Assembly: GCA_013815535.1 (NCBI GenBank) | Contig: JACDGC010000001.1 | Location: 451-64,450, forward strand | Direction: 5' to 3' | Origin: Ktedonobacterales bacterium | GTDB lineage: Bacteria > Chloroflexota > Ktedonobacteria > Ktedonobacterales > JACDGC01 | Length of the DNA stretch: 64,000 nucleotides | Part shown: positions 21,224 through 40,267 of the stretch, piece by piece | Position numbering within the stretch: position 1 is the stretch's first letter | Layout: each line of letters opens with the position of its first letter | Translations under genes and position numbers: made by a program | Notes under the pieces: model-generated | Databases searched by the model: none | Told to the model about the DNA's origin: nothing | Seen by the model: only the letters and a program-made list of their open reading frames with translations

Positions 21224-21377
21224 ATCTTCGCCTCACCGGAGATGCTTATGGTCCATTCTCGCATATCCCCTGCGGAGCGGATGTCAAGCACCACTCTCAT
21301 CTCCTTAGGGTCTCAGCTTTTTGACGTGCCTTGCACCTCGCTAAACTCTTGCCCTGGGAGGACGAGCAGGGCAAACC

Positions 21378-24773: not shown

Positions 24774-27700
24774 GGGGTTTTGCCCTCGGAGGGCGGCTCC
24801 CCTGGCTCCGCTGGTTGCGCTCCCTTGCCACTCCCCCGCTTGCCCCGGAGACGTCGCGGCGGGCTTGTCGCAGGCTTGGCGGCGGGGGATGGGAGCAGCG
24901 CCGTGGGTTGGGCGTGCCCGTAGCCGATCCCTTGGGTGTTGAGCATCCCGGTGCGGCGTCGTGAGCCGGGGAGGCGTCGTTTGGGGGGGGGCGGGCGTGC
25001 TGGCGTGACCAGGGGAGCCGTCCCCGGCTCTTCCGGGGGGGCGGGCAGCTGATGCTGGCGGCTGATGGCCATATTGGCGCGCCCCCGCTCGCGCTCATCG
25101 GCAGGATGGCGATCGGCAAGTTCGGCGAGGAGCGTGTCGATCTCCGCGAGGGTGCGGGGTGCGAGGAGCCGTTGACTCTCCGCGCGGATAGCGTGGGAGG
25201 CTGCATCGTCCCGGGTGGGGGGCGCGGCCAGGTCAAAGGAAAAGACCGGGAGGCGTCGCCCGTTCGCGGTGAGCTTCGCGTAGCAGGTGAACGCATCGAG
25301 ATTGATGAGATCGCGGGTGGTGACTACGCCATCGAGTTCGCGCTCCATGAGACGGGCATCTTCGGCTGACATGTCAAAGGCAAAGAGGTTGTCGATGTTG
25401 GCGAGCACGGTGGGGCGCAGGGCGGGGTCCAATTTGTCCAGATAGGCAAGCGCCTGGGTCGCCAGGATGAAGGAGGCCCCATACTTGCGCAGCTCGCTGA
25501 GCATCTGGCCGAAATCGACCCCCTGTAAGGTTTGAAATTCATCGACCAATACGAGTAAGCGGTGCCGCTCGTCCGTGGCGAGGGCCGCCTGTTCCTCCAG
25601 GGTGACGCGCAACAGGCCGAGAATCGTGGCACCAATCAAGCGTGCCGTGTGTGCACCAACGACCCCCTGCGCGGTATTGATGATGAGGATTTTGCCCTCG
25701 CGCACGACGCGGGTGAGATCGAGGGTGGACTGGGGGATGCCCAGGATCCGGCGCGCGATGATGGATCCGTTGAATTTATTGAGTTTGGTTTGGACGGGGT
25801 TGATGACATCGAGGCGCAGCCGCTCATAGAGTTTATCGAAATACGTCTCCCACCACCGGTGGATTTCGAGGTCTTTGACGTGTTTGAGCACTTCGTGGCG
25901 AAACCGATCCTGGTTCAGCAGCGGCGTGACGTCGAGCAGGGTAAATTGATCGATGGGATCCATATGATATTGGTAGATAAGCGTCTCATTGGCGGCGTAC
26001 AGCGTCTTCAGGGCAAACTCCATCGCGTTTTCCATGCGGTAGCCCCAGCCTTTGTCCCAGATATCCGCGAAGATGACCAGCAAGTTCTCGACGGCTTTAT
26101 CCCGATTGCGTCCCAGGGTGACATCGAGCGGATTGATGGCGGGGGGATGCTCCGTATCGGCGAGGTCGAGCAGGATGACATCGCCCTGACGGCTGGGCGG
26201 AATAGCGCCGAGCATTTGCTGGGCAAGATCGCCATGCGGATCGACGAGGATCAGGCCGAGTGGCGTAGGCGCAAGTGCGCCCAGGTGCGGCTCCTCCTGA
26301 TGCCAGGAGGGGGCAGGCGGAGTGAGCCGCAATCCCAGCCGTGCCAGCAAGAGCATGAGCGAGGATTTGCCTTTGCCGGTTTTTGCCACGAGCAGGCTAT
26401 GTTGGCGCAGGCTTTCCCAGCCCAGCGTGATCGGGGTCTGATAGCCTGCGTGGCGCGAGGTGCCTACCACGTGTGGGCCATCCGCGTCGCCCTCAGCGCG
26501 CACGGCACGGGGCGCAAAGAGGGTTTTCGCGCGATTCTGTTGTTCGACCCAGGCCAACTCCGGGAGGTCATACGCCTGGGGGAGATGCCACAGGCTGGCA
26601 ATCTCGGCCAGACTCAGGATCGTGGGCGAGCGCCCCACCCCCCATCGCCACTGGTGGCGCTGCCGGGAGTGCTCGCCCGGCCAGTACGGGCTTTCAGGCG
26701 TCAGCCGCCGCGCCCAGGCCGCGGGAATCGCGCGGGCCGTAAAGGAACTGGCCCCCGCGCGATGGAACTGGCGATACGTGGCGGTGATGCGCTCCAGCAC
26801 GCGCTGGCGCTGGGCATGCCAACGTTGCTCTTCGGCGCGGGTGTCGCCAGCCGGACTGATGACGTAGAGACGCAGCTGGGTATGATACCCCGGCTGATGG
26901 GTCTTGAGCGCGATCTCCGCCGGATCGAACACGGTTTCCGCCGGGGTCCCTAGGTGCAGGAAACGCCGCACGATCAGCAGCAGGAGGAGCACGCCGCTGC
27001 CCACGCCCAGGATCCAGGCGGTGAAAATGGGCAAGAGCTGAGCGAGATGCGTCAGCCGTTGGCTGACGCTGAGCCCGCCGCCCTTGCTGCCGGGTGCCAG
27101 GAGGCTTTGGAGCTGACGAATGAAGGGGCCGATGAGGGGATAGTGGTCGGCATGATGGGCCGGGCTGAGCAACCACCATAGGGCCAGCATCAGCCCAAAG
27201 AGGATCAGCAGGGGGAGCGGGCTGCCGACCTGGCTTTCCCGGTCACGGGAGACGGCGGTGATGCGGGAGCGCGCCAACGAATGCTCATCGGCTTCGCGCA
27301 TATGCCCCTCCGACCAGTGCGGCGACGCGGGGGTCAGGGCGAGCTGGGCTATCGCGCGCATCCCCACCGGTAGGGGGCCGAGCGCGGCCAGCACGCCCAG
27401 GAGGGGATCGACACCCATCTGGTATTCCTGGCGACTGCCACGTGGCGGTGTCCAGGTGCGCAAGCTCAGATACGGTCGTCCGGTGGGTCGTAACAGGCGC
27501 GCACTGATGGCTTCGCCATCATGCAGACAAAAGGCATCCTGGTCAGGGGCGATCAGTTGCACGTCACTTTGGGGATAGCGGGCATGGATTTGGCTGGCGA
27601 GGTAGTCCAGCGTCTGGGGGGCGGTGGTCCGTGCGACGATGGCGCGCGCATCCGCCTGACCCACGAGTTCGAGCGCGATCGCGGCGGTGCGCCCTGGACG

Positions 27701-27985
27701 CGCGAGCGCGAGGGCTTGAATGAGGAGTTCCATCGCCGTCAAATCCTGGGGAGCATCCACGGGGGGGCGGATGAGCAGCGCGCAGGGCAGGTCCAGGGCT
27801 GGGTCCTGGTCCGCCCCTGGTGCACGCAGGTCGTTGGGGACCACGCTCGGCACGACCATTTCTGACGCGACGGGCGGCGGCTGCCAAGGGGCGGGCATGT
27901 CCGGCGGCCGCGTGGCGCGGGCCGTCCAGCGGGCGTGGAGGGGGCGGAGGAGCAACGCGGCTCGCTCAAAAGGGGAGGTGTGCAT
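24770..27985 (-). CDS. Type IV coupling protein-like ATPase (TraD/VirD4/TcpA-class, FtsK-HerA fold)
   Basis: N-terminal membrane segments, Walker A LLVAKTGKGKSSLMLLLARL, Walker B RHRLLVLVDEFQTL, then ILATQALAYL. Start and stop overlap the neighbouring genes. Confidence 0.7.
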   Translation of the reverse strand: MHTSPFERAALLLRPLHARWTARATRPPDMPAPWQPPPVASEMVVPSVVPNDLRAPGADQDPALDLPCALLIRPPVDAPQDLTAMELLIQALALARPGRTAAIALELVGQADARAIVARTTAPQTLDYLASQIHARYPQSDVQLIAPDQDAFCLHDGEAISARLLRPTGRPYLSLRTWTPPRGSRQEYQMGVDPLLGVLAALGPLPVGMRAIAQLALTPASPHWSEGHMREADEHSLARSRITAVSRDRESQVGSPLPLLILFGLMLALWWLLSPAHHADHYPLIGPFIRQLQSLLAPGSKGGGLSVSQRLTHLAQLLPIFTAWILGVGSGVLLLLLIVRRFLHLGTPAETVFDPAEIALKTHQPGYHTQLRLYVISPAGDTRAEEQRWHAQRQRVLERITATYRQFHRAGASSFTARAIPAAWARRLTPESPYWPGEHSRQRHQWRWGVGRSPTILSLAEIASLWHLPQAYDLPELAWVEQQNRAKTLFAPRAVRAEGDADGPHVVGTSRHAGYQTPITLGWESLRQHSLLVAKTGKGKSSLMLLLARLGLRLTPPAPSWHQEEPHLGALAPTPLGLILVDPHGDLAQQMLGAIPPSRQGDVILLDLADTEHPPAINPLDVTLGRNRDKAVENLLVIFADIWDKGWGYRMENAMEFALKTLYAANETLIYQYHMDPIDQFTLLDVTPLLNQDRFRHEVLKHVKDLEIHRWWETYFDKLYERLRLDVINPVQTKLNKFNGSIIARRILGIPQSTLDLTRVVREGKILIINTAQGVVGAHTARLIGATILGLLRVTLEEQAALATDERHRLLVLVDEFQTLQGVDFGQMLSELRKYGASFILATQALAYLDKLDPALRPTVLANIDNLFAFDMSAEDARLMERELDGVVTTRDLINLDAFTCYAKLTANGRRLPVFSFDLAAPPTRDDAASHAIRAESQRLLAPRTLAEIDTLLAELADRHPADERERGRANMAISRQHQLPAPPEEPGTAPLVTPARPPPPKRRLPGSRRRTGMLNTQGIGYGHAQPTALLPSPAAKPATSPPRRLRGKRGSGKGAQPAEPGEPPSEGKTP

Positions 27986-30858
27986 TAGCCTGCTCCTTGC
28001 GAGCGGGCGGGATGCTGGCCATTGCGCCCCGCGCTGGTGTCCGTTGCTGGGGAAGCGCGACGGCTCCCTTTGCCCGACCGACGGATGGGGATATCTGACG
28101 TGGGGCTGGCCACGCTGACGAGTGCCTCACTGGGAGGGTCTGGCTCGGCTTCCTCGGGAAGGGGGTGGGCGCGGTGACGTTTCGCTAATTCACTGGGATC
28201 GCTGGTGACGAGATGATGTTCCCACTCGGAGCTATCGACATGGAGCGCGACATGCGCGTTGCGGGCAAACAACAAGCCCTCCCCTTTATTGCACCCCAGG
28301 ATGAAGCTCCGTTCCCCCTGGCTCAGGTGGAAGGCCCCCGCGACCGAGGCGATCGTGCTGGCATCCTGCTTCATCAGGATTTTGATCGAAGCATTGACCA
28401 GGACGGTGCGTCCGTGCTCATTCGTGAGGAAATCCTCGACATCCTGGGTGATGGTGACGAGTCCCAGGTAATATTTGCGGGCACGGCGTGCCATATCCGA
28501 TAAGAAGCGGCCCCCTTCGGGGAACTGCATGAGGGACCAGGCTTCGTCGATGAACAATTGGCGTGGTTGGCGGGCATGCTCACGGCGCATGCGGGTCCAG
28601 ACAAAATCGGCGATCATGAAGAGGCCAATGGGACGCAGCTCGGCCTCCATCTCGCGAATATTGAAAACGACAAACTTGTTCGCCAGCGCCACATTCGTTG
28701 GGGCATTGAAGAGATGGGCCATGCTGCCCGTGACATAGCGTTGCAGACGATCCCCCAAATGGAAGTCGTCGGGACCGCACGCTCCGCTGGTGAGGACCGC
28801 ATACACATCGCTCAGCAAGGGCGCTGGGTGGGCATGGGTCTGCGGATCGGTATAGATGCCGTGGCGATGGTACGTCTCGAACAGCACCCGTTCGAGGAAG
28901 CTCTTCTCGCGTTGGGATAAAGTGGTGGCACGCCCCTGCACATGATCGGCCAGCAGCAGATCCATCAAGGTGATGAGCGAGAGAATCTTTTCCGCCAGGA
29001 GGTCGCCCCGATCCTCTTCGCTGCTGGCGGTGCCGCTCGTATCCTGGAATAAATCGAACGGGTTGACATGCTGCGGGGAGCCAGGGCGCAGGTGGATGAG
29101 TTGGCCGCCGACGGCGGCGCACAGGCGCCCCCACTCGTTTTCGGGATCGATGACACAGATCGCCGTGCCGGTCATGAGGGAGCGTACCGCCTGAATTTTG
29201 CAGGCATAGGATTTGCCCGCGCCGGACTTGGCGAACACCACCTGATTGGCATTTTCCAATTGGCTGGAGAATGGATCGAGAATGACCAGCCCCCCACTGC
29301 CATCGACGCCGTACAGGATGCCGTCGGGCATCGAGAGGTTGGCCGAGGCGAAGGGGAAAGCGGTGGCGATGGTGCTACTATCGAGCAGGCGGCTCCGATT
29401 CCAGCGGTCGCGCGCTTCCGGCAAGCAGGAGCCGAAGGCAATATCCTGCTCGAAGGTGGCGGGATGGGCGACGAGGAGCATCGCACTGAGGGCCGCCTGC
29501 ACCTGGGCGAAACGTTCATTGAGGGCCTGTTCGCTGGGTGCGCGTACTATCCCATAGATCGCGACCTCGAAGATCTTTTCGTCGCCGTGTTGCAGATGAT
29601 CGCGTAAGCGTTCGACATCCGCATACGCCAGCATGCGTTCGGGATCAGGCATGCGCCCTTGCCGTGTTTCCAATATTTCGGAGGCGCGAAACTCGACCAT
29701 TTGGCGGGAGAGCCGTTGGATCATGGTGGCGGAATCGCGCGGCCGCAGATGGATGGACCATTCCAGCGGAATGTCGAGCGCAATGAGTTGGGCCAGCCAG
29801 CCAGGATAGACATAGCGTGGATAGCCCACCACGGCGAACACCCGCGCATATTCCCCATCGAGAGTGATATGCTGCGCGCCGATTTCTGCTGCGGCGGGTG
29901 CCAGCAAATCAGCGATGGTCAGTAGCGCGGGTGGTTCCGTTTCAGCGGCACTGCCGGGTGCGAGTGTCGCGTCACGGGCTGGTGGATCATCGGTCGTGGG
30001 CAATTCGCTCGTTGGATCGGTCAGGGGTGGGAGGGGGGTGCGGCGGGTGCGATGTCGTCGCCAAGCGCGCGGGGCGCGTGCACTGGGCGGGAGTTGCGCC
30101 CCGGCAATGGTGGCCGCCGCGAGGGGGTGTTGCGTCGCTTTTTGGGGGGTCAGGCAGGAATAATACAGATTGACCAGTTCCGTGCCGCGCAGGCGCTGCG
30201 CCCCCAGACCGACGCGCCCCAACTGGCGGGCTACTTCGCGCACGCGGAGATCGAGTTGTTGGCGCGCCACCGCTTGCCATTGGAGGCCTTGCAGCAGCCG
30301 ATCCTCGGTCGAACGGGGACGCAGACGCGCGAGGTGCCGCCAGAGGATTTCCAGGCGGCTCACCCCTGACATCTCCGTGGCCGGGGTCGTCGGAATGACG
30401 ACATAAAAATGGCGTTCGAGCAACCGGCGCCGGGTGGCAAGACTGCGGACAAAGGCGATGTTATCCTGCGTCAGTTCGAGCAGCACCGCGTCCTCGTGGC
30501 GACTGGCGGCTTCATGTTCGGCCGCGAGGCGCGTCGCATGTTCACCCAAGCGGGCGAGATAGGGTTCGAGATCGAGTTTGAGCACGCGCACGAGAATTTG
30601 CACGGGGAAGGGGAGCGCATTGAGGAAGCTGAGATAACTGGAGATGATGGTTTCCTGCTCCTCCGCCGAGCGCAGCATGTAATTGAGGGGCGTGATGGCG
30701 AGGACCGCGCAGAATTGGTCGGCCACGCGGGGCAGCGTCGAGTCGCGATCAGGCGTGCCCAGGCACAGCGTATCGTCGCCGACGAGCGCCCAGGCGCCGA
30801 CGAATTGCTGCTGGGTACTTCCCAGGCGATGCGGGGGAAAATGGGGGCGTGTAACCAT
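27985..30858 (-). CDS. VirB4/TrbE/PrgJ-like conjugation ATPase
   Basis: Walker A VVFAKSGAGKSYACKIQAVRSL, ICVIDPENEWGRL, NPFDL, and Walker B RQLFIDEAWSLM. The 957-aa size is typical. Confidence 0.8.
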   Translation of the reverse strand: MVTRPHFPPHRLGSTQQQFVGAWALVGDDTLCLGTPDRDSTLPRVADQFCAVLAITPLNYMLRSAEEQETIISSYLSFLNALPFPVQILVRVLKLDLEPYLARLGEHATRLAAEHEAASRHEDAVLLELTQDNIAFVRSLATRRRLLERHFYVVIPTTPATEMSGVSRLEILWRHLARLRPRSTEDRLLQGLQWQAVARQQLDLRVREVARQLGRVGLGAQRLRGTELVNLYYSCLTPQKATQHPLAAATIAGAQLPPSARAPRAWRRHRTRRTPLPPLTDPTSELPTTDDPPARDATLAPGSAAETEPPALLTIADLLAPAAAEIGAQHITLDGEYARVFAVVGYPRYVYPGWLAQLIALDIPLEWSIHLRPRDSATMIQRLSRQMVEFRASEILETRQGRMPDPERMLAYADVERLRDHLQHGDEKIFEVAIYGIVRAPSEQALNERFAQVQAALSAMLLVAHPATFEQDIAFGSCLPEARDRWNRSRLLDSSTIATAFPFASANLSMPDGILYGVDGSGGLVILDPFSSQLENANQVVFAKSGAGKSYACKIQAVRSLMTGTAICVIDPENEWGRLCAAVGGQLIHLRPGSPQHVNPFDLFQDTSGTASSEEDRGDLLAEKILSLITLMDLLLADHVQGRATTLSQREKSFLERVLFETYHRHGIYTDPQTHAHPAPLLSDVYAVLTSGACGPDDFHLGDRLQRYVTGSMAHLFNAPTNVALANKFVVFNIREMEAELRPIGLFMIADFVWTRMRREHARQPRQLFIDEAWSLMQFPEGGRFLSDMARRARKYYLGLVTITQDVEDFLTNEHGRTVLVNASIKILMKQDASTIASVAGAFHLSQGERSFILGCNKGEGLLFARNAHVALHVDSSEWEHHLVTSDPSELAKRHRAHPLPEEAEPDPPSEALVSVASPTSDIPIRRSGKGSRRASPATDTSAGRNGQHPARSQGAG

Positions 30859-31340
30859 TAGGAAGCCTCCGGATACTCGCGACCGTGCACACTGTCACGG
30901 TAGGTAGGGACGAGGCCACTGAACTGTGGCTCGGGTTCGGTAAGCGGTTCGTCGCGCGTGAGCGGGTCGGCAAGATTGCTGAGGAGGGTTGTTTCCTCTG
31001 GGAGGGGAGCCTGGCGTGGCGTTGGCCGCCAGATGCAGGCTTTGGGGAGGCCCCGATAGCGCAACAGGGCCATGCTCCAGGTCTCCAACGGACGGTCGGC
31101 GGGACGAATGAAGGCCAACGCCATAGACAGGCTGATCGGTACAGCGGCACACGCGAGACGTCCCAGCAGCCCCCAACCGAGGCGTCCTCCGGCGAACGGT
31201 CCACTGTGGCCAAGGTGTTGAAAGCACACATAGCCCAGGGCGATCCCGATCCCCAGAAACAGGAGTTGGCGTGCGGTGAGGCCAAAGACGATTTTGTCTT
31301 CAACCTCCAGCTTGGTCGGGATTTCATGGCGACGGAGCAT
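30858..31340 (-). CDS. PrgI-family (VirB3-like) membrane protein
   Basis: Preferred start ATG 31340: MLRRHEIPTKLEVEDKIVFGLTARQLLFLGIGIALGY, the typical PrgI opening. The longer track ORF (to 31706) overlaps the pilin-like gene and looks like a shadow frame. Confidence 0.55.
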   Translation of the reverse strand: MLRRHEIPTKLEVEDKIVFGLTARQLLFLGIGIALGYVCFQHLGHSGPFAGGRLGWGLLGRLACAAVPISLSMALAFIRPADRPLETWSMALLRYRGLPKACIWRPTPRQAPLPEETTLLSNLADPLTRDEPLTEPEPQFSGLVPTYRDSVHGREYPEAS

Positions 31341-31351
31341 AGCAGCTTCTT

Positions 31352-31642
31352 TCAGGCACCCAATGCGGTCGAAACCAATTGCGCGATGACATTGGCGGTG
31401 AGCACGATGCCTAGACCAACGAGGGCGCAAATGATGCAGGTTTTGGCGCGATCCAGGGACCGCACGTTGCCGTTGGCGGTCATGTACAAAAAGCCCCCGA
31501 TGAGCACGAAGAACGTTGCGACAACTAATCCCACGCTGGTCCCAATTGTGGTCAGGCTGGTGAAGAACGTGGTAATCGCGGTTTTGAAATCTGCCGGGGC
31601 CGGGGCCGGGGGCACTACGGCAATGATGAGCTGTGCGAACAT
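31352..31642 (-). CDS. VirB2/TrbC-like small membrane protein (candidate pilin)
   Basis: ATG 31642 is preceded by AAGGAG. 96 aa with two long hydrophobic helices (VGLVVATFFVLIGGFLYM, ICALVGLGIVLTANVIA). Confidence 0.4.
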   Translation of the reverse strand: MFAQLIIAVVPPAPAPADFKTAITTFFTSLTTIGTSVGLVVATFFVLIGGFLYMTANGNVRSLDRAKTCIICALVGLGIVLTANVIAQLVSTALGA

Positions 31643-31680
31643 GTGGGAACTCCTTTGGCGGTTGGGAGGACAGTGCCTGA

Positions 31681-33093
31681 TTAGCACGTTGCCCCTTGGT
31701 TGTCATAGCGAGTGAGGTTCAGGGTGGGGTCGCTCAGGAGGTTCGTGAGGGAATCGCCAGGCACACCATCCGCCGTGTAGTGGCTGAAGTCCCAAGGACT
31801 TTGCCCTAACGCGGTGGCTTGCGCGAGTGGCCCTTGTGGCCAGGCGGCGGCGACGCTGGTGTAGTTCCCCATTTTGGTAAAGATGGTGTGGATCTCCACG
31901 CCTTGCTCGGCTGAGTTGGCGTAGGCGAATTGGCCAGGAGAACCCACCTGGCCGGTGCCGCCAATGGTGGGAAAACCGGGGATAGCGGAACTGTTGCCCC
32001 AGTTGTAGCCGGTATACCCTGGCAAGTGCCAGCCTTGTTCAACCCCCCATTGGGCTAACAAGACCGACACATACCAAGGATGGGGTAAAGGTCGCTCCCA
32101 GGGATAGGGATTAGGCATGCCCTGGCCGGGATTGCTCAGTTCCATCTGCTGCGCCAGACGAGCGAAGGGGAGCGCCGCACAGATGAAACGGTGAACGGTA
32201 TTCGCCGTCGGTCGCGATGCCGGTCCCAAATAGCGGATAAAGCCCAATGCGGTGTAGGCGTCGCCGCCGGGCCAGGGCAAGACGTTCAAGTCCGGTTGCG
32301 GAGTAAGGGGCACGCTCGCCGTTGGGGCAAAGGCATTCGCTTGTGCGAAGGTCACCGAGCCCGCCTGGCCATCGGTTGGCGGGGTAACGGCGAGGACGAT
32401 GGCGATATGGCCCGGATCATAGGCGCCGGTGGTCGATGCGGCATGGCTCCAGACGAGCATATCCCCCGGCTGGGGCAATCCGGGACCGATGCCTGGCGTG
32501 CCCGGTTGGGGGCTATGGCCGGCGGGAATGGCGACCCACTCCTTCAGCGTGCGGTAATGGCTCCAAAACGTCACGGCGTCACCTTGGTAAGGCATCGGCA
32601 ACCCCGCCAGGCCATAGGCCGCGATGACCAGACTGACGCATTGAAAATTGCCACTGGCCCAGCCGCTCGCGTCACCGGGATAGGTTTTTTGCAAGAAATC
32701 GACGACGGCCTGGGGCATCGCTCCCGTGGCATTCCCGGTGGTATAGCATTTATCGAAATCCGGCGCGCGCAGCGCCGGGTTGGGATCCCAATGGCCCCCA
32801 CACATCGTGAGATGGGCCGCGATCGTGTGTGCCCACGCGACGACCGAACAGGCCGGGGTTGGCGCTGGGGGAGGCGTCGCGGCGACCGGTGCTGGCGTGG
32901 CTCCTGGCGGGCTGCCGTTGGCGGGTATGGGGGTACATTGCCCCGTGCCGCCGGTGGCTCCTCCCTGATCACTTCCCCCCCCAGCAAACACCGCGATGGG
33001 GATGATGAGGAAAGCGGCACCCAGACAAACGACGAGGGTAATAATGACCAGGAGGCTCAGGAGGCACCCCCCAGTGGCGTTCTTTGCTGGCAT
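31681..33093 (-). CDS. Cell-wall hydrolase: CHAP amidase/peptidase domain plus glucosaminidase-like domain (VirB1/PrgK/TcpG analogue)
   Basis: TM anchor, then CHAP Cys (NFQCVSLVIAAYGL) and His (GDMLVWSH...PGHIAIVLAV). The C-terminal part YVSVLLAQWGVEQGWHLPGYTGYNWGN...FAYANSAEQGVE is glucosaminidase-like. Confidence 0.7.
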   Translation of the reverse strand: MPAKNATGGCLLSLLVIITLVVCLGAAFLIIPIAVFAGGGSDQGGATGGTGQCTPIPANGSPPGATPAPVAATPPPAPTPACSVVAWAHTIAAHLTMCGGHWDPNPALRAPDFDKCYTTGNATGAMPQAVVDFLQKTYPGDASGWASGNFQCVSLVIAAYGLAGLPMPYQGDAVTFWSHYRTLKEWVAIPAGHSPQPGTPGIGPGLPQPGDMLVWSHAASTTGAYDPGHIAIVLAVTPPTDGQAGSVTFAQANAFAPTASVPLTPQPDLNVLPWPGGDAYTALGFIRYLGPASRPTANTVHRFICAALPFARLAQQMELSNPGQGMPNPYPWERPLPHPWYVSVLLAQWGVEQGWHLPGYTGYNWGNSSAIPGFPTIGGTGQVGSPGQFAYANSAEQGVEIHTIFTKMGNYTSVAAAWPQGPLAQATALGQSPWDFSHYTADGVPGDSLTNLLSDPTLNLTRYDNQGATC

Positions 33094-33108
33094 ACGCGTT
33101 CCTTTTCT

Positions 33109-34650
33109 TTACGTGCTGAGCGGTCCGGCATCATCCGGCAGCGCATAGCCACTCCCTTCGATGGTGATGCCCGCGCCGGGACGGGGATCGCTGGATCCAG
33201 GGGAGCCGGTGTAACCGGGGTCGTCGTCGAATCCGGATGAGCCTCCGTCATCGGTGCCTCCGCCGCCAGGGGAAGACCCTGGGCCTGGCAGATAGCCGCC
33301 GAAACCGCCCCCCCCCATACCACCTCCCGATGGTGACGGCAATCCTGGCGCGCCCGAACTGGTCGTCGAGGAAGGCGCGGCCCCCATCTCGGTCACGGTG
33401 GCTCCGCCCCCGCCGCTACCCCCCCCGCCCCCGCCGCCCCCAGCGCCCATGGCCATGGCGGGATTGCCCGTGGCCATCGCCACGCCGATCTGCGCGGCGG
33501 CGGCCAGGACCCCCACTCCACTGGCCACCCCACCGACGGTGCGAAACAACCCGTAGTTGAGCAGAGCCGGCAGGCGAAAGCACAAGTAAAAGGTGGCAAT
33601 CAGGAGGCAGATTTGCAGGAGTACCGTGTTTGGACCCCACACGCCGTCGTTGACGGGAATATTCGTGGCGAGGGTCACCCCCATGGAAATGAGGGTGAGT
33701 TGCAGCGGTTGCAGAATGAGGGTGGCCGTGGTCAATCCGGCCCACCATTCGGTGGCCCGCTGCGTCTGCGGCAACGCCCAGCAAATGATGGCCAGCGGGG
33801 AGATGACGATCAGCAGATCGAGCAGCGCCAGCCGGACGAAAATCTGCAAGATGAGCAGCAGCAGCATGATCTCGTAACAGACGAGGCCAATGCTCCCAAA
33901 GAGGAGAGTCGCGGCGGTATTCGCTCCACTCGGCAGATTGGTCAACTCGGGCGTGAAGAGGGGGGCGACGCCCACAAAATGCATGAAGAGATTGCTTGCC
34001 CCAACGAGTTGGTCGAGCATCCAGAGGCTCAGGTTGGCTCCGAGTGCGCTGATGGCGAAGCGCGGGAAGAACTCAGCGATGTCGTGGTAGGAGAGGCCCA
34101 GAGCTGGGCGCACCATGAGATTGATGCCAGCCACGATCACAATGAGGACCAGGGCGCCATTAGCGATCCACCGCATATCATCGACGAGGGCATGAATGGC
34201 GTCATTCCCCGTGGTCACGCTGGTGGGGGTGTCAAACAGGATGTCATGCGAGAGAAAGCCTGCATTGAAGCCCTGCAGGAGATTTTCACTCCAGGTCAAA
34301 AACCAGTTCGCTCCGCCTACGATGGCGCGCATGAACCAGTAGCAGGGATCGAAATCGTTGCCCAACAGCGAGAACAGCACGCAATGAGGCAGATCCGTCG
34401 TAGGAATCGGATCGGGTGCGGCGGTTTGGCGGGTGGCAGCCCCTTGATAGGTTGCCCCCTGAGGACCCTTGCTGAGGCTGAATGCCGCAGGAGGGGTGTC
34501 GTGGGCGGGTGCTTGCGCCGCGTGTTCGACGGTCAGACCATGGGATGCGATGAGGCCCAGTCCCAGCAGGCAGATGCACAGCCAGAGCGCATGGGGATGA
34601 CGACCGCCCGCCCGATGTGGGGGAGATGTCCGTCGGATGAAGCGTGCCAT
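33109..34650 (-). CDS. VirB6/TrbL-like polytopic membrane protein with a Gly-rich C-terminal tail
   Basis: Preferred start ATG 34650 (GGAGGTG upstream). Multiple TM segments, then a GGGGGGGSGGGG / SPSGGGMGGGGFGG tail. It is the first gene of the T4SS operon. Confidence 0.55.
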   Translation of the reverse strand: MARFIRRTSPPHRAGGRHPHALWLCICLLGLGLIASHGLTVEHAAQAPAHDTPPAAFSLSKGPQGATYQGAATRQTAAPDPIPTTDLPHCVLFSLLGNDFDPCYWFMRAIVGGANWFLTWSENLLQGFNAGFLSHDILFDTPTSVTTGNDAIHALVDDMRWIANGALVLIVIVAGINLMVRPALGLSYHDIAEFFPRFAISALGANLSLWMLDQLVGASNLFMHFVGVAPLFTPELTNLPSGANTAATLLFGSIGLVCYEIMLLLLILQIFVRLALLDLLIVISPLAIICWALPQTQRATEWWAGLTTATLILQPLQLTLISMGVTLATNIPVNDGVWGPNTVLLQICLLIATFYLCFRLPALLNYGLFRTVGGVASGVGVLAAAAQIGVAMATGNPAMAMGAGGGGGGGGSGGGGATVTEMGAAPSSTTSSGAPGLPSPSGGGMGGGGFGGYLPGPGSSPGGGGTDDGGSSGFDDDPGYTGSPGSSDPRPGAGITIEGSGYALPDDAGPLST

Positions 34651-34821
34651 GGTCACCTCCTGGAGCGGAAACCAGTGACAACGTCGACTGGTCACGCTGC
34701 TCAATGACCTACCAGGGTCGGGTAAACAGGGAAGGGGGAGCATGATCCTTCCCTAGCGATCGGCGAGGGGGACATCTCGCTCGAACAGGTGCTGGCACTA
34801 GCGTACCTGGAGAAGGCCCCC

Positions 34822-34918
34822 AAAAATGGTTCATGAAGACCCAATTCTTGGGTCAAACTGGATCAAGGTTTGGATCCAGTTTGACCCAAACCTTGTCCAC
34901 TTATTCCAAAATCGTGCG
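34822..34918. repeat. 97-bp repeat, copy B; contains a 17-bp-arm perfect palindrome
   Basis: Same ends as copy A. ttgggtcaaactggatc (34848-34864) and gatccagtttgacccaa (34873-34889) are exact reverse complements, separated by 8 nt. It lies about 170 nt upstream of the VirB6-like start. Confidence 0.9.
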
Positions 34919-34963
34919 GAGATCCACAGAGGAAAGCAACGGTGGTAGAAGCGGAAGCATAGG

Positions 34964-35001
34964 CAAGGGCGCTCGGTGGGAGGAAGCACCGAACGCCCTT
35001 G
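34964..35001 (-). terminator. Hairpin downstream of the wHTH gene (possible terminator)
   Basis: caagggcgctcggtg / caccgaacgcccttg forms a 15-bp stem with one mismatch and an 8-nt loop. The downstream U-tract on the minus strand is weak. Confidence 0.3.
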
Positions 35002-35066
35002 CACAGGTCAAGAACAAGTGATTATGGGAGGAGCAGGAAGAATACCCTCGCGTGTAGCGACGACGC

Positions 35067-35525
35067 TCATTCTCTGCTAGTGGGGAAGGTTGGCGGGGCG
35101 TCATTCCCCAATGGCATGGTGACGGTGATGTAATACCCCACATTTTGGTGACCATGGTGGATATGGATCAGGGTGATATATGGGTTAATCAGTTCCTTGA
35201 GACGAATGATTTGACGGCCAATGCGGCGTCGCGTTGCGTTATCCAGGTGGATAGCTTCGGTAGGGTAGATGCAGGCAGCGGCTTCTTCGACGGTAATGAA
35301 GAAGAACGGGGCCAGCTGATCGGACGCGAAGCGATGCAATAAGAGCAACATCAGTTGCAATTGGGATGGGGAGAGCGGTTGAAAGGTGCGCTGTCCCGTC
35401 ACCACGTCTTTGAAGATGACCTGGCGTGGCTCGGCGATGCACTCCACATGAAAGTCGCCAACTCTGGCGGCGCAGGAAAGCGTGCGCGGTTGGTGCGCTC
35501 CCCGTTGAATCCATGTCACCGGCAT
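35067..35525 (-). CDS. Putative winged-helix (OmpR/PhoB trans_reg_C-like) DNA-binding protein
   Basis: Preferred start ATG 35525 (MPVTWIQ), 41 nt after the iscB stop. LSPSQLQLMLLLLHRF...ITVEEAAACIYPTE...ATRRRIGRQIIRLKELI resembles the wHTH effector-domain pattern. Confidence 0.4.
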   Translation of the reverse strand: MPVTWIQRGAHQPRTLSCAARVGDFHVECIAEPRQVIFKDVVTGQRTFQPLSPSQLQLMLLLLHRFASDQLAPFFFITVEEAAACIYPTEAIHLDNATRRRIGRQIIRLKELINPYITLIHIHHGHQNVGYYITVTMPLGNDAPPTFPTSRE

Positions 35526-35566
35526 AACAAGCTTCACCCAAAATGCGGCACGGATACCCCTGCCTG

Positions 35567-36865
35567 TTAGGCATGAGGAGGAAGCGCCGCCTCCTTTCGA
35601 AATGTGTAGCCATACCCATCGTTGCGATGGATGGGGGTACAATAGCGCGCATGCACTCCCTCTATCACGCCAAATCCTCCCGTGATCTTGAAATATCCAT
35701 CCTTCTTGACTGCCACTCGCCCCACATATGTCCCTGCTGGCTTGCCTTTAGTGACTACTGCACGCACCATATCTCCCGTATGCCACCCTAGGACCGTGCT
35801 CGTCCCTTTGGGGCTGCCAATAGGGAAACCATGCTTATTGACTTTGCGCATCTGTCGGCTATGCCGCCCCGCCGCCTGTATTAGCAACGGACACACATGT
35901 CGCCAGTGGAGGTGCTCAGGTGTACTCTGGCCTATGCAGGAAGCATCCAGCCAATGGGTCTTAGGAATGGCGCGATTGGTCCGATTCCACTTCGTCCTCC
36001 CGCCCGTCCCAGTCTCCACTGGCAATCTCGTTTGCTGCAGGCGCTCATACAGCGCCCAACGGGTACTATTGACCGCCGCTGCGTCCTTCAATGGTTTCTT
36101 GGCTTCTATCTGTACATCGGGATGTCCATATTCGGCCGCAGTGCAGTCACCTTTCTCTTGATTACAGTTGTGGCAGGAAAGGGCAAGGTTGCTGATGCGA
36201 TTGGAACCGCCGCGACTGCGGGGAGTGATGTGATCGACCTCCCATCGTATCGCTTGCACCCCACAATACGCACACCGATATCCCCATTTAAGCAGAAGAT
36301 ATTCCCGCGCTTCCCATCCTGCCAACGTACCTTGCTGGTATTCGATACCACTGATATCCGGGCGTTCGATGAGTTGGGTGTCGAAGCGGACTAACTCATA
36401 TGAGATATTTGTGATAGGAGCATATCGACGCAAACGCTCGACCCACGTCACCACATTTTGAATACGACTAAGGAGCGACGGCGGGAGCCATCCTTCCGGG
36501 CGTCTCCGATTATCGAAACGAGGTTGGCGATAGCGTGTATGCCGGTGTCGCCGCCCGCGCCGTTGAGCCTGCCGCGTGTCCAGCGCCTCCTTTACCTGTC
36601 GTCCACGATGGGCGAGTTCCGCTGCCCATATCACTTCTCCCGTTGCATCGTTGACCATCACTATCCCCGTCGTTTGGCTACCCGGATCAATCTTGACCCG
36701 CAATGGAGGAGTGACGTACTCAGATGGGGGCTGTTTCAGGATGATCGTAAAAGGATATCTCCGCAATATCGCTGCCCGCTTCTGCGTAAGAAGCCACCGC
36801 GCCCGCGCCGGACGGCATGGACTCAAGGGTATTTTCTCTGGACTGACGACCAAGACTCGTTGCAT
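35567..36865 (-). CDS. iscB: IscB: RuvC/HNH RNA-guided endonuclease of the IS200/IS605 superfamily (Cas9 ancestor)
   Basis: PLMP-type N-terminus (VLVVSPEKIPLSPCRPARARWLL...YPFTIIL), RuvC-I KIDPGSQTTGI, Arg-rich bridge (QRRGRRHRHTRYRQPRFDNRR), RuvC-II ISYELVRFD, HNH CAYCG...EVDHITPRSRGGSNRISNLALSCHNCNQEKG, RuvC-III KTHWLDASC, and the C-terminal ...HRNDGYGY. The preferred start is ATG 36865. Confidence 0.85.
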   Translation of the reverse strand: MQRVLVVSPEKIPLSPCRPARARWLLTQKRAAILRRYPFTIILKQPPSEYVTPPLRVKIDPGSQTTGIVMVNDATGEVIWAAELAHRGRQVKEALDTRQAQRRGRRHRHTRYRQPRFDNRRRPEGWLPPSLLSRIQNVVTWVERLRRYAPITNISYELVRFDTQLIERPDISGIEYQQGTLAGWEAREYLLLKWGYRCAYCGVQAIRWEVDHITPRSRGGSNRISNLALSCHNCNQEKGDCTAAEYGHPDVQIEAKKPLKDAAAVNSTRWALYERLQQTRLPVETGTGGRTKWNRTNRAIPKTHWLDASCIGQSTPEHLHWRHVCPLLIQAAGRHSRQMRKVNKHGFPIGSPKGTSTVLGWHTGDMVRAVVTKGKPAGTYVGRVAVKKDGYFKITGGFGVIEGVHARYCTPIHRNDGYGYTFRKEAALPPHA

Positions 36866-37264
36866 TGAGCTTTCTTCTTTCCCTTGCGGGAGCCTCTTAA
36901 ATAGAGGCACATCTGCTTGCGCAGGTAAGGTTCCCCTCGTCAATGTTCTCCGAAGGTTTGTGTGTTGGCAGCACTGGCCTTCCCAATCGACCTATTTAAC
37001 CACCACCCGCAGCGCAAGGGACTGAGGTGCTATCCCTTGGTGCCTATCTATTCTTCGGGAACGGAGTCCTTGCGAACTGAGACTGGTCAGCAGCAGGACT
37101 TGTTTTCACAAGCCCCCGCCTTTTGGCGTGGGGTCGCTGACAGCCGCCATATCACCCATCCCATCTGGTGCTGAACTCCCGTCACGTTGCCACGGCGAGC
37201 GCGCCATGAGTCGCGAGGATCGGTACTCACGTGCTTCAGAGAGGTCACACGGGTCTCCGTAGCT
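36866..37264 (-). ncRNA. Candidate IscB omega-RNA (guide plus scaffold) in the iscB 5' region
   Basis: A roughly 400-nt stretch with no credible ORF lies directly upstream of iscB and is rich in local hairpins on the minus strand: ccccacgcc-aaaa-ggcggggg, cttg-tgaaaa-caag, caaggga...tcccttg, and gcctct-attta-agaggc just before the start codon. The position matches known IscB loci. The ends are not determined. Confidence 0.45.
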
Positions 37265-37270
37265 GTACCA

Positions 37271-37300
37271 AGTATACATCTAGGCATGAGAAAAAATCAA
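37271..37300 (-). promoter_or_regulatory. Sigma70-like promoter candidate for the omega-RNA/iscB transcript
   Basis: The minus strand reads TTGATT (37300-37295), an 18-nt spacer, then TATACT (37276-37271), at the edge of an AT-rich patch. Confidence 0.35.
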
Positions 37301-37535
37301 CTGTAGGATACATAAATAGCAAAAATTGGCTTATGATAAAAAAGTATGTCCTACAGAATACTCTTTTGGATGCTAGGAGGTGCAGCATTTGATCCCATCA
37401 ATGCGGCGATATGAGGAGGCAGAGTACCAATCGTGGATCGATGCAGCATTAGTGTTCTCGATTTCTTCGCCAGATAACGTGGCCGCGCCAGGTTATCGGC
37501 TCTTGCCCAACTTTAGTGAATCTGCTCCCTTACTA

Positions 37536-37610: not shown

Positions 37611-37973
37611 TCACTGATGCGTATACGCTTGCTGCGCCGTGGTGATCGCCATGATATTGGCTTCGGACCAGGCCCGGAGTTCGGCCAACGGTCCACACAG
37701 CGTTTGCCCGAGCGGCGTCAAGGTATACTCGACATGTGGGGGAACCTCCGCATACACTGTGCGCTGTACCAACCCACTGCGTTCCAGGTGCCGCAGATTC
37801 TGGGTGAGCATTTTTTGCGAAATGCCCCCAATCTGCCGATGCAGCGCCGAGAAGCGCGCCGGACCCGCTTCGAGCAGTCCCAGAATCACGGCTGCCCATC
37901 GCTCGGCGATGACGGCTAGCACCTGTCGCGTCGGACAGGCAGTGGTGTAGGTCAAGGTAGAACGGCGTTCCAT
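37611..37973 (-). CDS. HxlR-family winged-helix transcriptional regulator
   Basis: CPTRQVLAVIAERWAAVILGLLEAGPARFSALHRQIGGISQKMLTQNLRHLERSGLVQRTVYAEVPPHVEYTLTPLG is the canonical HxlR pattern. ATG 37973 is preceded by GAGGGAG. Confidence 0.8.
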   Translation of the reverse strand: MERRSTLTYTTACPTRQVLAVIAERWAAVILGLLEAGPARFSALHRQIGGISQKMLTQNLRHLERSGLVQRTVYAEVPPHVEYTLTPLGQTLCGPLAELRAWSEANIMAITTAQQAYTHQ

Positions 37974-38136
37974 TGGTAACTCCCTCACTTTTTGGTGCGT
38001 ATGCCACTTTCCCGTGCCTGCTTGGCGAGCGACGCCCCTAGGTGTATCGTATCTCAGAAGCAGGAGCGCCTTTTTCTCCTGCGGCCTGCAAGGCTCAGGG
38101 AGTCGCACACCACTCCAGCGCGAAGGGACAATCACC

Positions 38137-38982
38137 ATGTATGCCGTTAGTGGAGCGAGCGGCCAGCTTGGGCGGCTGGTGCTCAAACATTTGCTCACCC
38201 TGGTTCCTGCTCAGCAGATCGTCGCGACCACCCGCACCCTCCACACCATCGCTGATGTGGCCGCCAGCGGGATTGCCGTGCGCCAGGCGGATTTTACCGA
38301 TCCGCGCAGCTTGCCTACCGCATTTGCAGACGTGACGCGCCTGCTCCTCATCAGCACACCAGGGCAACGTGCCGAGGAGCACACCACCGCGATTGCGGCG
38401 GCGGTCCGTGCTGGCGTCACCCACATCATTTATACCTCAGGCATCAATGCCAGTCCCACTTCACCCGCCCTCGTGCAGCAGGTCCACGGCGTGACTGAGG
38501 CTGCCTTAGCCGCTACCTCGCTTCCCTGGACGGCCCTGCGCAACAGTTACTATGCGGAGTTCCTGCCCCGTTTTATTGACCTGTTGCAGGAGGGGAAGGT
38601 CGTCCACCTGCCCCCAGGACAGGCCGGAGTCGCCTGGGTAACCCGCGAAGATTGTGCCCGCACGGCGGCATTCGTGTTGGCAGGCACCGCCGATCTGAGG
38701 GGACCCCTCGATGTTACCGGACCCGAAGCGGTCAGCCTTGCTGAGGTCATCCACCGCTGGTCGGGCATCACGGGCCGTGCGGTGACGATCGATATCCTGC
38801 CAGACGAACACGTGCGCGCCTTCGTCATGGCCAAAGGCCTCCCGGCGTCATTCGCCACCAGCATGGTCGACATTGCGATTTGGGCGAATCGTGAGGGATT
38901 CGCCGTCACCAACACCGTTGAGCAGATCACGGGTCGCCCACCAGCCCCCATCGAAGTCGTCCTCACCCAAGCGACCAGCTAG
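38137..38982 (+). CDS. NmrA-like / atypical SDR NAD(P)-binding oxidoreductase
   Basis: MYAVSGASGQLGRLVLKHLL is a Rossmann GxxGxxG-type motif. The gene is divergent from the HxlR gene, a common pairing. Confidence 0.75.
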   Translation: MYAVSGASGQLGRLVLKHLLTLVPAQQIVATTRTLHTIADVAASGIAVRQADFTDPRSLPTAFADVTRLLLISTPGQRAEEHTTAIAAAVRAGVTHIIYTSGINASPTSPALVQQVHGVTEAALAATSLPWTALRNSYYAEFLPRFIDLLQEGKVVHLPPGQAGVAWVTREDCARTAAFVLAGTADLRGPLDVTGPEAVSLAEVIHRWSGITGRAVTIDILPDEHVRAFVMAKGLPASFATSMVDIAIWANREGFAVTNTVEQITGRPPAPIEVVLTQATS

Positions 38983-39810: not shown

Positions 39811-39910
39811 AGCAATCTCCCTGTCTGCGTGTTCCCGATGTCAAACACCCCACGTTTTGCCACAGATATTGGCGTACTAACGCAGGAGCATTTCCCAAAA
39901 TGCGGTACCG

Positions 39911-40267
39911 CTACGTCGCTGCTTCGCTTGCGGCGGGGGGTGGCTGAGCGGCGGCGAACCCCACGGTATAGAGACGCTCGCCGATGCGGCGATCAACCTC
40001 TTTGTTGCGCTCGGCGAGGTCTCCCCAGGGGGTGAGCCAGTGCGGATGATCGGCCACATCCGGTTGCTCTTCTGCCCAAGCGAGCCATTCCGCGCGGACC
40101 AACTGGCCGAGTTGTTCCCGCTTTTCTCGCTGCGCTTGGTGTTGTGCAATGCGCTGTTCAACGGCATAGCAGTCATCACAGCCGCCGGTGTCGTCACAGA
40201 AGCGCCCACAGTTCCAGCAATGGTTGGGATTGCCCGTCACCCACCAGCGTCGCTTTTTGCGTGCCAT
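39911..40267 (-). CDS. hypothetical protein with an N-terminal Cys cluster
   Basis: MARKKRRWWVTGNPNHCWNCGRFCDDTGGCDDC. Confidence 0.35.
   Translation of the reverse strand: MARKKRRWWVTGNPNHCWNCGRFCDDTGGCDDCYAVEQRIAQHQAQREKREQLGQLVRAEWLAWAEEQPDVADHPHWLTPWGDLAERNKEVDRRIGERLYTVGFAAAQPPPAASEAAT

Follow-up and report, generated by a model that had tools for sequence, protein, structure and literature searches.

The current analysis identifies what is very probably a non-autonomous insertion element of the IS200/IS605 type (ISC/OMEGA) in the genome of a Ktedonobacterales bacterium. The element occupies 1,604 bp of the minus strand (35538-37141) of the 64,000-nt stretch of DNA that was analyzed, hereafter the window, and it contains only an intact iscB gene and the scaffold of an ωRNA (Table 1). 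Both the family and the exact protein are already present in public databases, as the product of the gene is identical to GenBank MBA3822292.1. The value of the locus is primarily one of annotation: the GenBank name of this protein, "HNH endonuclease", should become "RNA-guided endonuclease IscB" and be accompanied by a HEARO/ωRNA feature as well as the boundaries of the insertion sequence. For developers of genome-editing tools, the locus offers another natural ortholog among thousands, with a putative RTGA TAM. Beyond annotation it matters little, since known OMEGA biology is neither challenged nor extended by it.

Table 1. Features of the element and its surroundings (window coordinates)
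Feature	Coordinates	Strand	Basis
Whole element (ωRNA scaffold and iscB only)	35538..37141	-	ends from alignments of related loci
iscB, 432 aa + stop	35567..36865	-	NCBIfam, Pfam and PDB matches, AF2 model
ωRNA scaffold, HEARO-matched part	36925..37141	-	Rfam RF02033
ωRNA 3' extension beyond the HEARO model	36880..36924	-	three small hairpins, conserved in relatives
3' hairpin 1, CUGC-GCAA-GCAG	36924-36913	-	compensatory changes in 3/4 pairs
3' hairpin 2, GCCUCU-AUUUA-AGAGGC	36908-36892	-	in minimum-free-energy fold
3' hairpin 3, UCCC-GCAA-GGGA	36891-36880	-	in minimum-free-energy fold
RE subterminal hairpin (first ωRNA stem-loop), CCCCACGCC-AAAA-GGCGGGGG	37113..37133	-	compensatory changes
LE subterminal hairpin, CCTCATGCC-TAAC-AGGCAGGGG, spanning the iscB stop codon	35557..35578	-	conserved in 26 loci
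Putative TAM, reading GTGA along the iscB strand (TCAC along the TnpA "top" strand)	35534..35537	-	junction conservation
Putative guide-encoding flank, GGGTGATATGGCGGCT, the 16 host nt that adjoin the scaffold on its 5' side	37142..37157	-	boundary at 37141 and known IscB ωRNA layout
Sigma-70-like hexamers TTGATT-18-TATACT in the host flank, candidate external promoter	37271..37300	-	9/12 matches, AT-rich patch
hxlR host gene, same orientation as iscB (120 aa in the gene call on the Logan contig)	37611..37973	-	Pfam HxlR, 8.9e-28
Orphan ORF, 152 aa	35067-35525		no homologues

The IscB protein

The iscB reading frame is uninterrupted from ATG 36865 to its stop codon at 35569-35567. The longest possible frame opens further upstream at TTG 36943 (458 aa), but homologue alignments favor the ATG as the start. 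The 432-aa product exceeds the cutoff of the NCBIfam equivalog NF040563 (guided_IscB) by a wide margin (422 bits vs 175, E = 1.3e-126), its residues 4-179 match the Pfam RRXRR family (4.7e-68), and three HNH families match in all, with the Pfam HNH match (7.6e-13) located at residues 198-240. In a sequence search of the PDB, the top ten chains are all IscB or IsrB, with the IscB chains at E values of 1e-24 to 6e-38. Similarly, an AF2 model of the protein (pLDDT 78.5) yields 8CSZ, 9LIQ, 9NVU, 7XHT, and 7UTN as the best Foldseek matches (E 2e-24 to 4.5e-19, TM 0.54-0.61). The best matches among solved structures, whether by sequence or by fold, are IscB-ωRNA complexes, and IsrB and Cas9d are next after IscB in both comparisons.

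The hallmarks of IscB follow one another in the order given by a preliminary description of this DNA, which had also called the nuclease apparently intact. The N-terminus was described there as PLMP-type; this is correct for the domain, as indicated by the RRXRR match, whereas the motif itself reads PLSP (residues 13-16), compared with a clade consensus of PLxP in which P16 is invariant. RuvC-I (D60), an arginine-rich segment at about residues 98-123, and RuvC-II (E157) come next. The HNH insert (C198xxC201, D211-H212, N226, C231xxC234-N235) lies between RuvC-II and RuvC-III, and RuvC-III (H304 and D307) is followed by DGYGY at residues 416-420. The arginine-rich segment overlaps a helix of the AF2 model (residues 88-109) that bears R98, R102, R105, R106, and R108, as would a bridge helix, and the C-terminal residues 327-421 are beta-rich in the same model, consistent with a WED/TI domain. 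At 432 aa and with no REC lobe, the protein also falls within the ~400-500 aa range of the family. Among 26 sequences ranging down to 35% identity, D60, E157, H212, N226, N235, H304, and D307 are all invariant, as are the four cysteines of the Cys4 zinc site in the HNH insert (C198, C201, C231, and C234). The earlier assertion that no catalytic residue is missing is thus borne out for both the RuvC residues (D60, E157, H304, and D307) and the HNH set. Judged by its sequence, the ORF encodes an IscB that is complete in both length and catalytic residues, and from established IscB biology this protein would be expected to perform RNA-guided, TAM-dependent cleavage of double-stranded DNA.

The ωRNA

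Directly upstream of iscB and on the same strand, where the preliminary description had predicted an ωRNA, a covariance-model scan returned Rfam RF02033 (HEARO) at 131.3 bits vs a gathering score of 83 (E = 5.8e-27). The match extends over the full model (positions 1-211) and corresponds to 37141-36925; HEARO is likewise matched in every related locus that was tested with its upstream sequence. RF02033 ends ~45 nt before the conserved RNA does, and this remainder forms three additional hairpins (36924-36880), all of which occur in the minimum-free-energy fold. The Rfam model has previously been noted to omit downstream structural elements (Meers et al., bioRxiv 10.1101/2023.03.14.532601).

Across the whole scaffold and the first 3' hairpin, the window copy retains 61 of the 63 consensus pairs. 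In the alignment of related loci, 94.8% of the cells are paired, compared with 33-41% when the partners are slid, and double changes affect 39 pairs, with none of 500 shuffles matching the observed values. One pair of the pseudoknot is also changed from U:A to C:G in six sequences. The predicted fold, pseudoknot included, is backed by this covariation, and the stretch between iscB and the element boundary (36866-37141) folds beyond chance (z = -3.04; 0/200 shuffles as good). Together with the 3' hairpins, the conserved, covariation-supported RNA measures ~262 nt, from 37141 to about 36880. A separate candidate pairing of 36885-36904 with 36992-37011 (20 nt, 75% complementarity) is unconserved in the relatives and was dropped.

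Ends and class of the element

Alignments of related loci delimit the element at both ends. On the upstream side, conservation begins abruptly at exactly 37141 in 30 related loci, at a GTCA (37141-37138) that forms the invariant terminal motif (TEM) of the RE end, and all similarity is lost beyond it (21-30 related loci). On the downstream side, similarity stops past a GRTGA motif at 35534 (21-26 related loci). Over 21 loci, the five positions of this junction motif agree in 16 (G), 19 (R), 20 (T), 20 (G), and 17 (A) cases, and past it no relationship is seen among the flanks. This pattern suggests that the LE-side end, and with it the TAM boundary, can be placed to within 1-2 nt and that the GTGA at 35537-35534 is probably the TAM. 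The GTCA of the RE end differs from this GTGA at a single position.

Subterminal hairpins are found at both ends and in the same orientation, with changes in the relatives that preserve their pairing, as is characteristic of IS200/IS605 elements, which have imperfect subterminal hairpins and lack terminal inverted repeats. In the inner part of the RE stem (GCC/GGC plus the closing C-G pair), compensatory changes were found in all four of the pairs counted, and changes in the LE stem keep its pairing across 26 loci. The two hairpins are similar in both sequence and architecture. The IscB locus had also been described as high in GC, which holds only in a relative sense: the element has 55.7% GC, below the 60% of the window.

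As already noted in the preliminary description, tnpA is absent from the locus: no Y1 (HUH) TnpA is encoded in the 1.6-kb element or in the neighboring ORFs that were scanned. The element is therefore non-autonomous, whereas its membership in the ISC/OMEGA class is unaffected, given that iscB is found beside tnpA in only ~1.5% of cases and ~98.5% of iscB loci are non-autonomous (Meers et al., bioRxiv 10.1101/2023.03.14.532601).

Guide and transcription

In known IscB ωRNAs, the guide is located 5' of the scaffold (PMC9640706; Meers et al., bioRxiv 10.1101/2023.03.14.532601). The preliminary description had likewise positioned it at the 5' end of the ωRNA and at the element boundary. In agreement, the boundary coincides with the first scaffold base in 30 loci, each of which has an unrelated 16-mer upstream, and the use of that 16-mer as a guide would follow by analogy. 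At this locus the guide would presumably be encoded by 37157-37142, a sequence that is unique in the window at <=3 mismatches.

Based upon established IscB biology, the following sequence of events can be envisaged. Transcription would begin in the upstream host DNA, at a promoter in the flank or by read-through of hxlR, which has the same orientation as iscB, and would cross 37141 to yield an ωRNA with a flank-derived 5' guide of ~16 nt (GGGUGAUAUGGCGGCU), the ~262-nt scaffold of which would bind IscB. The element may be excised by a TnpA whose gene lies at another site in the genome, which would leave a donor joint in which GGGTGATATGGCGGCT is fused to GTGAAGCTTG. The IscB-ωRNA complex would then recognize this joint as a 16-nt target with a 3' TAM of GTGA and would cleave it, the target strand through HNH and the non-target strand through RuvC.

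It is possible that hxlR is the source of read-through transcription into the ωRNA, and the upstream gene is co-oriented in 6/7 of the related loci having gene calls. However, 470 nt separate hxlR from the element and a weak terminator-like hairpin comes after the gene, so its read-through is not assured.

Alternative interpretations

The preliminary description had envisioned a structured region of ~400 nt (36866-37264) as the ωRNA, transcribed from the element's own TTGATT-18-TATACT promoter at the edge of an AT-rich patch. We consider this reading very unlikely. The hexamers do exist at 37300-37271 on the minus strand in an AT-rich setting (local GC 0.44 at 37200-37499), a transcript starting near 37264 would take in the guide, and ωRNAs of 200-400 nt have been reported for the family (PMC9640706). 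However, there are three such promoter-like sites in 3.2 kb vs 2.1 +/- 1.5 in shuffles, which is chance level, and the candidate sits 130-160 nt outside the element boundary, in host DNA, and thus cannot be the element's own; transcription of ωRNAs in the IscB family must in any case begin outside the element (Meers et al., bioRxiv 10.1101/2023.03.14.532601). As for the RNA itself, only the portion from 36866 to 37141 proved structured and conserved. The remaining 37142-37264 is unrelated host flank that is unconserved in 30/30 related loci and folds no better than its shuffles (z = +0.54). Extension of the ωRNA to 37264 was rejected on both of these grounds in favor of the ~262-nt scaffold.

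Two further readings concern the nature of the locus as a whole. According to the view of HEARO that prevailed before 2021, the ORF could encode a free-standing homing or restriction-type HNH endonuclease with an unrelated structured RNA upstream. The Pfam HNH matches are compatible with this view, as are the names "HNH endonuclease" (NCBI, for the identical protein) and "McrA" (JGI, for relatives), but these are legacy labels derived from the domain alone, and relatives with 60-70% identity appear in newer NCBI annotation as "RNA-guided endonuclease IscB". With the HNH domain embedded in a split RuvC fold that is accompanied by PLMP and TI domains and a bridge helix, and with an IscB equivalog score of more than twice the cutoff, we regard this interpretation as scarcely credible. 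A weightier, though still unlikely, scenario is that the element is structurally intact yet stranded in a genome that offers no compatible TnpA, leaving IscB and its ωRNA to persist by drift alone or in a role co-opted by the host, and not for the maintenance of the transposon. The lack of tnpA in the element and its neighbors would fit this scenario, as would the single copy seen for the source organism, the rarity of iscB genes beside tnpA (~1.5% of cases), and the existence of decayed relatives (L038 and L044, which contain premature stops). Conversely, the full-length ORF with its complete catalytic residues, the nearly complete set of ωRNA pairs, and the intact TAM-like motif and hairpins at both ends all argue against this scenario, and active IscB elements are mobilized in trans and normally have no tnpA nearby (Meers et al., bioRxiv 10.1101/2023.03.14.532601). 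An intact, non-autonomous element remains our preferred reading.

Comparison with characterized systems

OgeuIscB (PDB 7UTN, 7XHT, and 8CSZ) is the best structural match to the protein and shares its domain order of PLMP, RuvC-I, bridge helix, RuvC-II, HNH, RuvC-III, and WED/TI. Its catalytic residues D61, E193, H247, H340, and D343 (Kato et al. 2022, PMC9640706) correspond to D60, E157, H212, H304, and D307, respectively, and its ωRNA, like the one predicted here, combines a guide at the 5' end with a pseudoknot and terminal hairpins. The two proteins are ~20% identical over the structural alignment and differ in length (496 aa vs 432 aa here), scaffold (206 nt vs ~262 nt), and TAM (NWRRNA/NNRR vs a putative GRTGA). 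It is conceivable, although we would judge it somewhat doubtful, that the Ktedonobacterales IscB clade (432 aa, ~13% shorter than OgeuIscB) is active with a short RTGA-type TAM of 4-5 nt and a ~262-nt ωRNA, and that the guide RNA of the present locus arises from a captured promoter in the host flank and not from read-through. If so, the clade would represent a genome-editing scaffold of somewhat smaller size and different targeting.

GstIscB, encoded by ISGst5 of Geobacillus stearothermophilus (bioRxiv 10.1101/2023.03.14.532601), resembles the present locus in the organization of its element. ISGst5 is likewise non-autonomous and of the IS200/IS605 type; its ωRNA takes the scaffold from the transposon RE and the guide from flanking sequence, the host gene upstream has the same orientation, and the RE end carries a motif almost identical to the TAM, as with GTCA and GTGA here. 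The TAM of GstIscB, TTCAT, adjoins LE and becomes ATGAA when read along the iscB strand, which is near the GRTGA(A) of our locus. However, GstIscB belongs to a different phylum, and excision, targeting of the donor joint, and the TAM are predictions for the element described here. Within the Ktedonobacteria, the bacterial class to which our locus also belongs, KraIscB-1 and other IscB loci of Ktedonobacter racemifer are described as multicopy elements in which IscB has an upstream ωRNA, and RNA-guided, TAM-dependent cleavage of double-stranded DNA is attributed to the IscB of this species (Altae-Tran et al. 2021, Science 374:57, via PMC11610941). By that description, on which our comparison is based, KraIscB-1 has an associated CRISPR array and its TAM is ATAAA (PMC11610941), whereas the locus here has no array.

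Among the more distant relatives, IsrB shares the RuvC core and bridge helix but has no HNH domain, while Cas9d (type II-D Cas9) shares the RuvC core, bridge helix, and HNH insert but possesses a REC lobe and a CRISPR array. A type II CRISPR-Cas9 system was rejected as an identification: no array-like repeats occur within the 64,000-nt window, the NCBIfam scores for Cas9d (42.9 bits vs a cutoff of 375) and Cas9 (30 vs 100 bits) are far below threshold, and the protein has just 432 residues.

Genomic neighborhood and related copies

The element has as its neighbors hxlR, an nmrA-like gene, and, at 35067-35525, an orphan ORF for which no homologues were found. Our search for an empty site found none, and the only other contig with the orphan ORF, from a second assembly (Logan SRR11719862), is occupied at this site as well; a single copy is all that is visible for the source organism. 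A search of genome contigs yielded only six distant loci, none of them from Ktedonobacter genomes. A possible solo transposon end at 39887-39914 (28 nt, 79% match to the LE end) is without an adjacent hairpin and was dismissed as a probable chance match.

The family as a whole appears to be mobile, as suggested by two observations: flanks as well as guides are unrelated from one related locus to the next, and at least 11 diverged copies of the family occur in one metagenome assembly. The insertion of the present copy lies between hxlR and the orphan gene, beside a conjugation module. A repeat of that module is found at 34822-34918, and the locus had been described as one terminator away from it; a hairpin does intervene, but so does the 152-aa orphan ORF.

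The iscB gene product

The locus is very probably a standard IscB-ωRNA OMEGA element. Although the longest possible iscB ORF starts at TTG 36943 (458 aa), the close homologs all have their N-terminus (M-Q/S-x-V...) where ATG 36865 falls, and the 78-nt extension upstream of this codon overlaps conserved RNA hairpins; judging from these sequences, 36865 is the true start. An identical protein is deposited as GenBank MBA3822292.1, titled 'MAG: HNH endonuclease [Ktedonobacterales bacterium]', and a second assembly of the organism (Logan SRR11719862) has the same gene order. The protein matches Pfam RRXRR (residues 4-179, 4.7e-68), three HNH families and the NCBIfam equivalog NF040563 'RNA-guided endonuclease IscB' (422 bits vs a cutoff of 175), while its scores against the NCBIfam Cas9d and Cas9 models fall far under their cutoffs. 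In a sequence search of solved structures, IscB chains rank at the top (TbaIscB, HfmIscB, and OgeuIscB; E 6e-38 to 1e-24), followed by IsrB and Cas9d. Similarly, the best fold matches of its AlphaFold2 model (pLDDT 78.5) are the IscB-ωRNA-DNA complexes 8CSZ, 9LIQ, 9NVU, 7XHT, and 7UTN (E 2e-24 to 4.5e-19, TM about 0.55-0.6), with IsrB, Cas9d, and Cas9 next.

In a 26-sequence alignment with identity down to 35%, D60, E157, C198, C201, H212, N226, C231, C234, N235, H304, and D307 are invariant, and their aligned counterparts include the catalytic residues of OgeuIscB, D61, E193, H247, H340, and D343 (Kato et al., PMC9640706). The PLMP motif reads PLSP in this copy; the clade consensus is PLxP and the final P is invariant. 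Family models, fold matches, and catalytic residues thus bear out the hallmarks listed in the preliminary description, and the protein is an intact IscB. Its database matches number more than 8,000. Among them are many 60-82% identical proteins from Ktedonobacterales and Chloroflexota metagenomes, some already titled 'RNA-guided endonuclease IscB'.

The ωRNA and the element ends

The covariance-model scan suggested in the preliminary description gives a clear result: the sole Rfam match in the window is HEARO (RF02033), the family later recognized as IscB ωRNA. The full-length model matches 37141-36925 (-) with an E-value of 5.8e-27 and 131.3 bits, against a gathering score of 83, and HEARO also matches the equivalent position in nine related loci. 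When the region from scaffold start to ATG was aligned across 25 loci, RNAalifold yielded 54 pairs, 34 of which have compensatory changes. These pairs were tested together with the Rfam stem-loop and pseudoknot: 94.8% of cells pair, versus 33-41% with partners slid by 1-3 columns, and 39 pairs have double changes, values attained in 0 of 500 shuffles. Within the pseudoknot (GUC 37083-37081 with GAC 36941-36939), six sequences exhibit U:A to C:G covariation. The window's own ωRNA keeps 61 of 63 consensus pairs. Since conservation runs beyond the model end through three small hairpins (see table), the scaffold is about 262 nt long. This agrees with published remarks that structural elements farther downstream are missing from RF02033 and that the mean length of IscB ωRNAs upstream of the ORF is 242 bp (Meers et al., bioRxiv 10.1101/2023.03.14.532601).

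Features of the IscB element and its immediate surroundings
Feature	Position	Strand	Remarks
iscB ORF	35567-36865	minus	432 aa, no interruption
First ωRNA 3' hairpin	36924-36913	minus	compensatory changes in 3/4 pairs
Second ωRNA 3' hairpin	36908-36892	minus	past HEARO model, within conserved region
Third ωRNA 3' hairpin	36891-36880	minus	past HEARO model, within conserved region
LE hairpin over stop codon	35578-35557	minus	conserved in relatives
G-R-T-G-A motif, window copy	35538-35534	minus	GGTGA
hxlR	37611-37973	minus	upstream of element, co-oriented with iscB
Divergent hxlR/nmrA-like gene pair	37611-38982		directly upstream of element
Orphan ORF, 152 aa (MAG locus tag H0X24_00140)	35067-35525	minus	start codon 9 nt past putative TAM
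Hairpin, 16-bp stem, perfect-looking	34963-35002		after orphan ORF

An RNA of roughly 400 nt, as originally suggested, is an overstatement. When 7 related loci, and later 30, were aligned, similarity at the ωRNA-side end (RE) was seen to start abruptly at GTCA, window 37141, and everything upstream differs wholly between loci; furthermore, 37142-37264 shows no more folding stability than shuffled sequence (z = +0.54 vs -3.04 for 36866-37141). We therefore place the element boundary at 37141 on the basis of these comparisons. The 16 nt outside it (37157-37142, GGGTGATATGGCGGCT) are a putative flank-derived guide, by analogy with characterized IscB systems. A TAM-like GGTGA pentamer lies inside this flank (37152-37156, -), and one also occurs at the closest relative, locus L012 (87-91), in a flank that is unlike it in other respects; this may be coincidence.

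At the opposite end (LE), conservation passes the stop codon, a hairpin, and about 19 nt more, and ends with G-R-T-G-A (16, 19, 20, 20, and 17 of 21 loci, position by position), past which the flanks are unrelated. The two end hairpins, CCCCACGCC-AAAA-GGCGGGGG and CCTCATGCC-TAAC-AGGCAGGGG, are alike and in the same orientation, which is the IS200/IS605 architecture. In GstIscB of Geobacillus stearothermophilus, the ωRNA scaffold comes from RE, the TAM abuts LE (TTCAT, or ATGAA read on the iscB strand), and the RE-terminal motif nearly copies the TAM (Meers et al., bioRxiv 10.1101/2023.03.14.532601). A comparable resemblance exists here, as GTGA, the putative TAM, differs at one position from GTCA, the invariant first four scaffold bases. 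From the end hairpins, junction motif, GTGA/GTCA likeness, and GstIscB layout, we infer an element of 1,604 bp (37141-35538) with an RTGA-type TAM, and GGGTGATATGGCGGCT|GTGAAGCTTG as the predicted donor joint. No empty site was found: the orphan downstream ORF has no homologs, and in the Logan SRR11719862 assembly, the one other place where this ORF occurs, the site is likewise occupied.

A 28-nt segment at 39887-39914, which includes CCGCATTTTGGG, shares 79% identity with the terminal segment of LE (35530-35557). It may be a solo-end remnant, but no hairpin was found beside it and the likeness is therefore probably due to chance.

Transcription, mobility, and function

The element had also been credited with its own promoter. 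The hexamers TTGATT-18-TATACT are indeed present (37300-37271, -; 9/12 positions matching), but they lie 130-160 nt outside the element within an AT-rich patch of host DNA and thus cannot be its own promoter; such sites number 3 in 3.2 kb vs 2.1 +/- 1.5 in shuffles. Their host position fits published IscB biology, in which ωRNA transcription has to begin beyond the element's boundary (Meers et al., bioRxiv 10.1101/2023.03.14.532601). The ωRNA may be driven by this flank site or by read-through. For read-through, hxlR is the likeliest source, and the upstream gene is co-oriented with iscB in 6 of the 7 loci having gene calls.

The nuclease, the covariation-supported ωRNA, and the transposon ends are all intact at the sequence level. 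The IscB mechanism has already been worked out in relatives, including members of the same bacterial class. Following that literature, external transcription would yield an RNA of guide plus scaffold to which IscB would bind. After TnpA-mediated excision, the complex would recognize the donor joint by a 16-nt match plus 3' RTGA, HNH cleaving one strand and RuvC the other, and recombinational repair from the sister chromosome would restore the element.

The main rival to a working system is an intact but stranded element in a genome with no TnpA. As originally noted, tnpA is absent from the element, and none occurs among the neighboring genes. Such absence is the rule, since a nearby tnpA accompanies just about 1.5% of iscB genes (Meers et al., bioRxiv 10.1101/2023.03.14.532601). 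Across the family, neither the insertion sites nor the guides are related to one another. The presence of at least 11 diverged copies in separate, unrelated locations within metagenome assembly GCA_009712145.1 (VFSW01...; L007, L009, L011, L013, L015, L025, L026, L028, L029, L037, L038), together with decayed relatives carrying premature stops (L038, 1001-1987; L044, 1001-1777), indicates from sequence that the family has been mobile in Ktedonobacteria-like populations. On balance, we favor a copy that functions in vivo, with appreciably less assurance than the classification itself. In one metagenomic contig (L008), a TnpB-type gene (Cas12f1-like_TNB, 4334-4423) and a 74%-identical iscB are about 3 kb apart, so both OMEGA nuclease types co-occur in such genomes.

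The original identification is correct apart from RNA length and promoter. The element is an ordinary one: family models exist, the exact protein is deposited, and its protein and RNA parts all pass curated NCBIfam, Pfam, and Rfam thresholds. The products of the analysis are mildly useful only, namely precise boundaries, an inferred RTGA TAM, and the ωRNA 3' extension.

Genomic neighborhood

The element has a GC content of 55.7% (window, 60%), and the window contains no CRISPR-like array. The orphan ORF has no Pfam or NCBIfam match and no homolog among 5.8 billion clusters. About 620 bp from the element is the right-hand copy of a 97-nt direct repeat (18102-18198 and 34822-34918, 89% identical) made of GTCAAACTGGATC-like half-sites, with a third, partial copy inverted at 47667-47716. 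The full repeats, which could be operator sites or integrative-element ends, bracket a conjugation module at 19019-34743 (RecD2, Replic_Relax relaxase-like, coupling-protein-like, VirB4-like, PrgI, CHAP, and TrbL-like genes); the IscB element lies outside them. Farther along is a gene for a Y-family DNA polymerase (IMS plus IMS_C) that carries an RNase H domain fused at its C-terminus (55462-57183, -); another Y-family polymerase, separate from the first and containing DUF4113, is encoded 3 kb away (51363-52625, -). A TIR-domain protein fused to WD40 repeats (57925-59556, -), an architecture typical of candidate defense or signaling genes, has a third-position GC of 0.52 vs about 0.7 in its neighbors.
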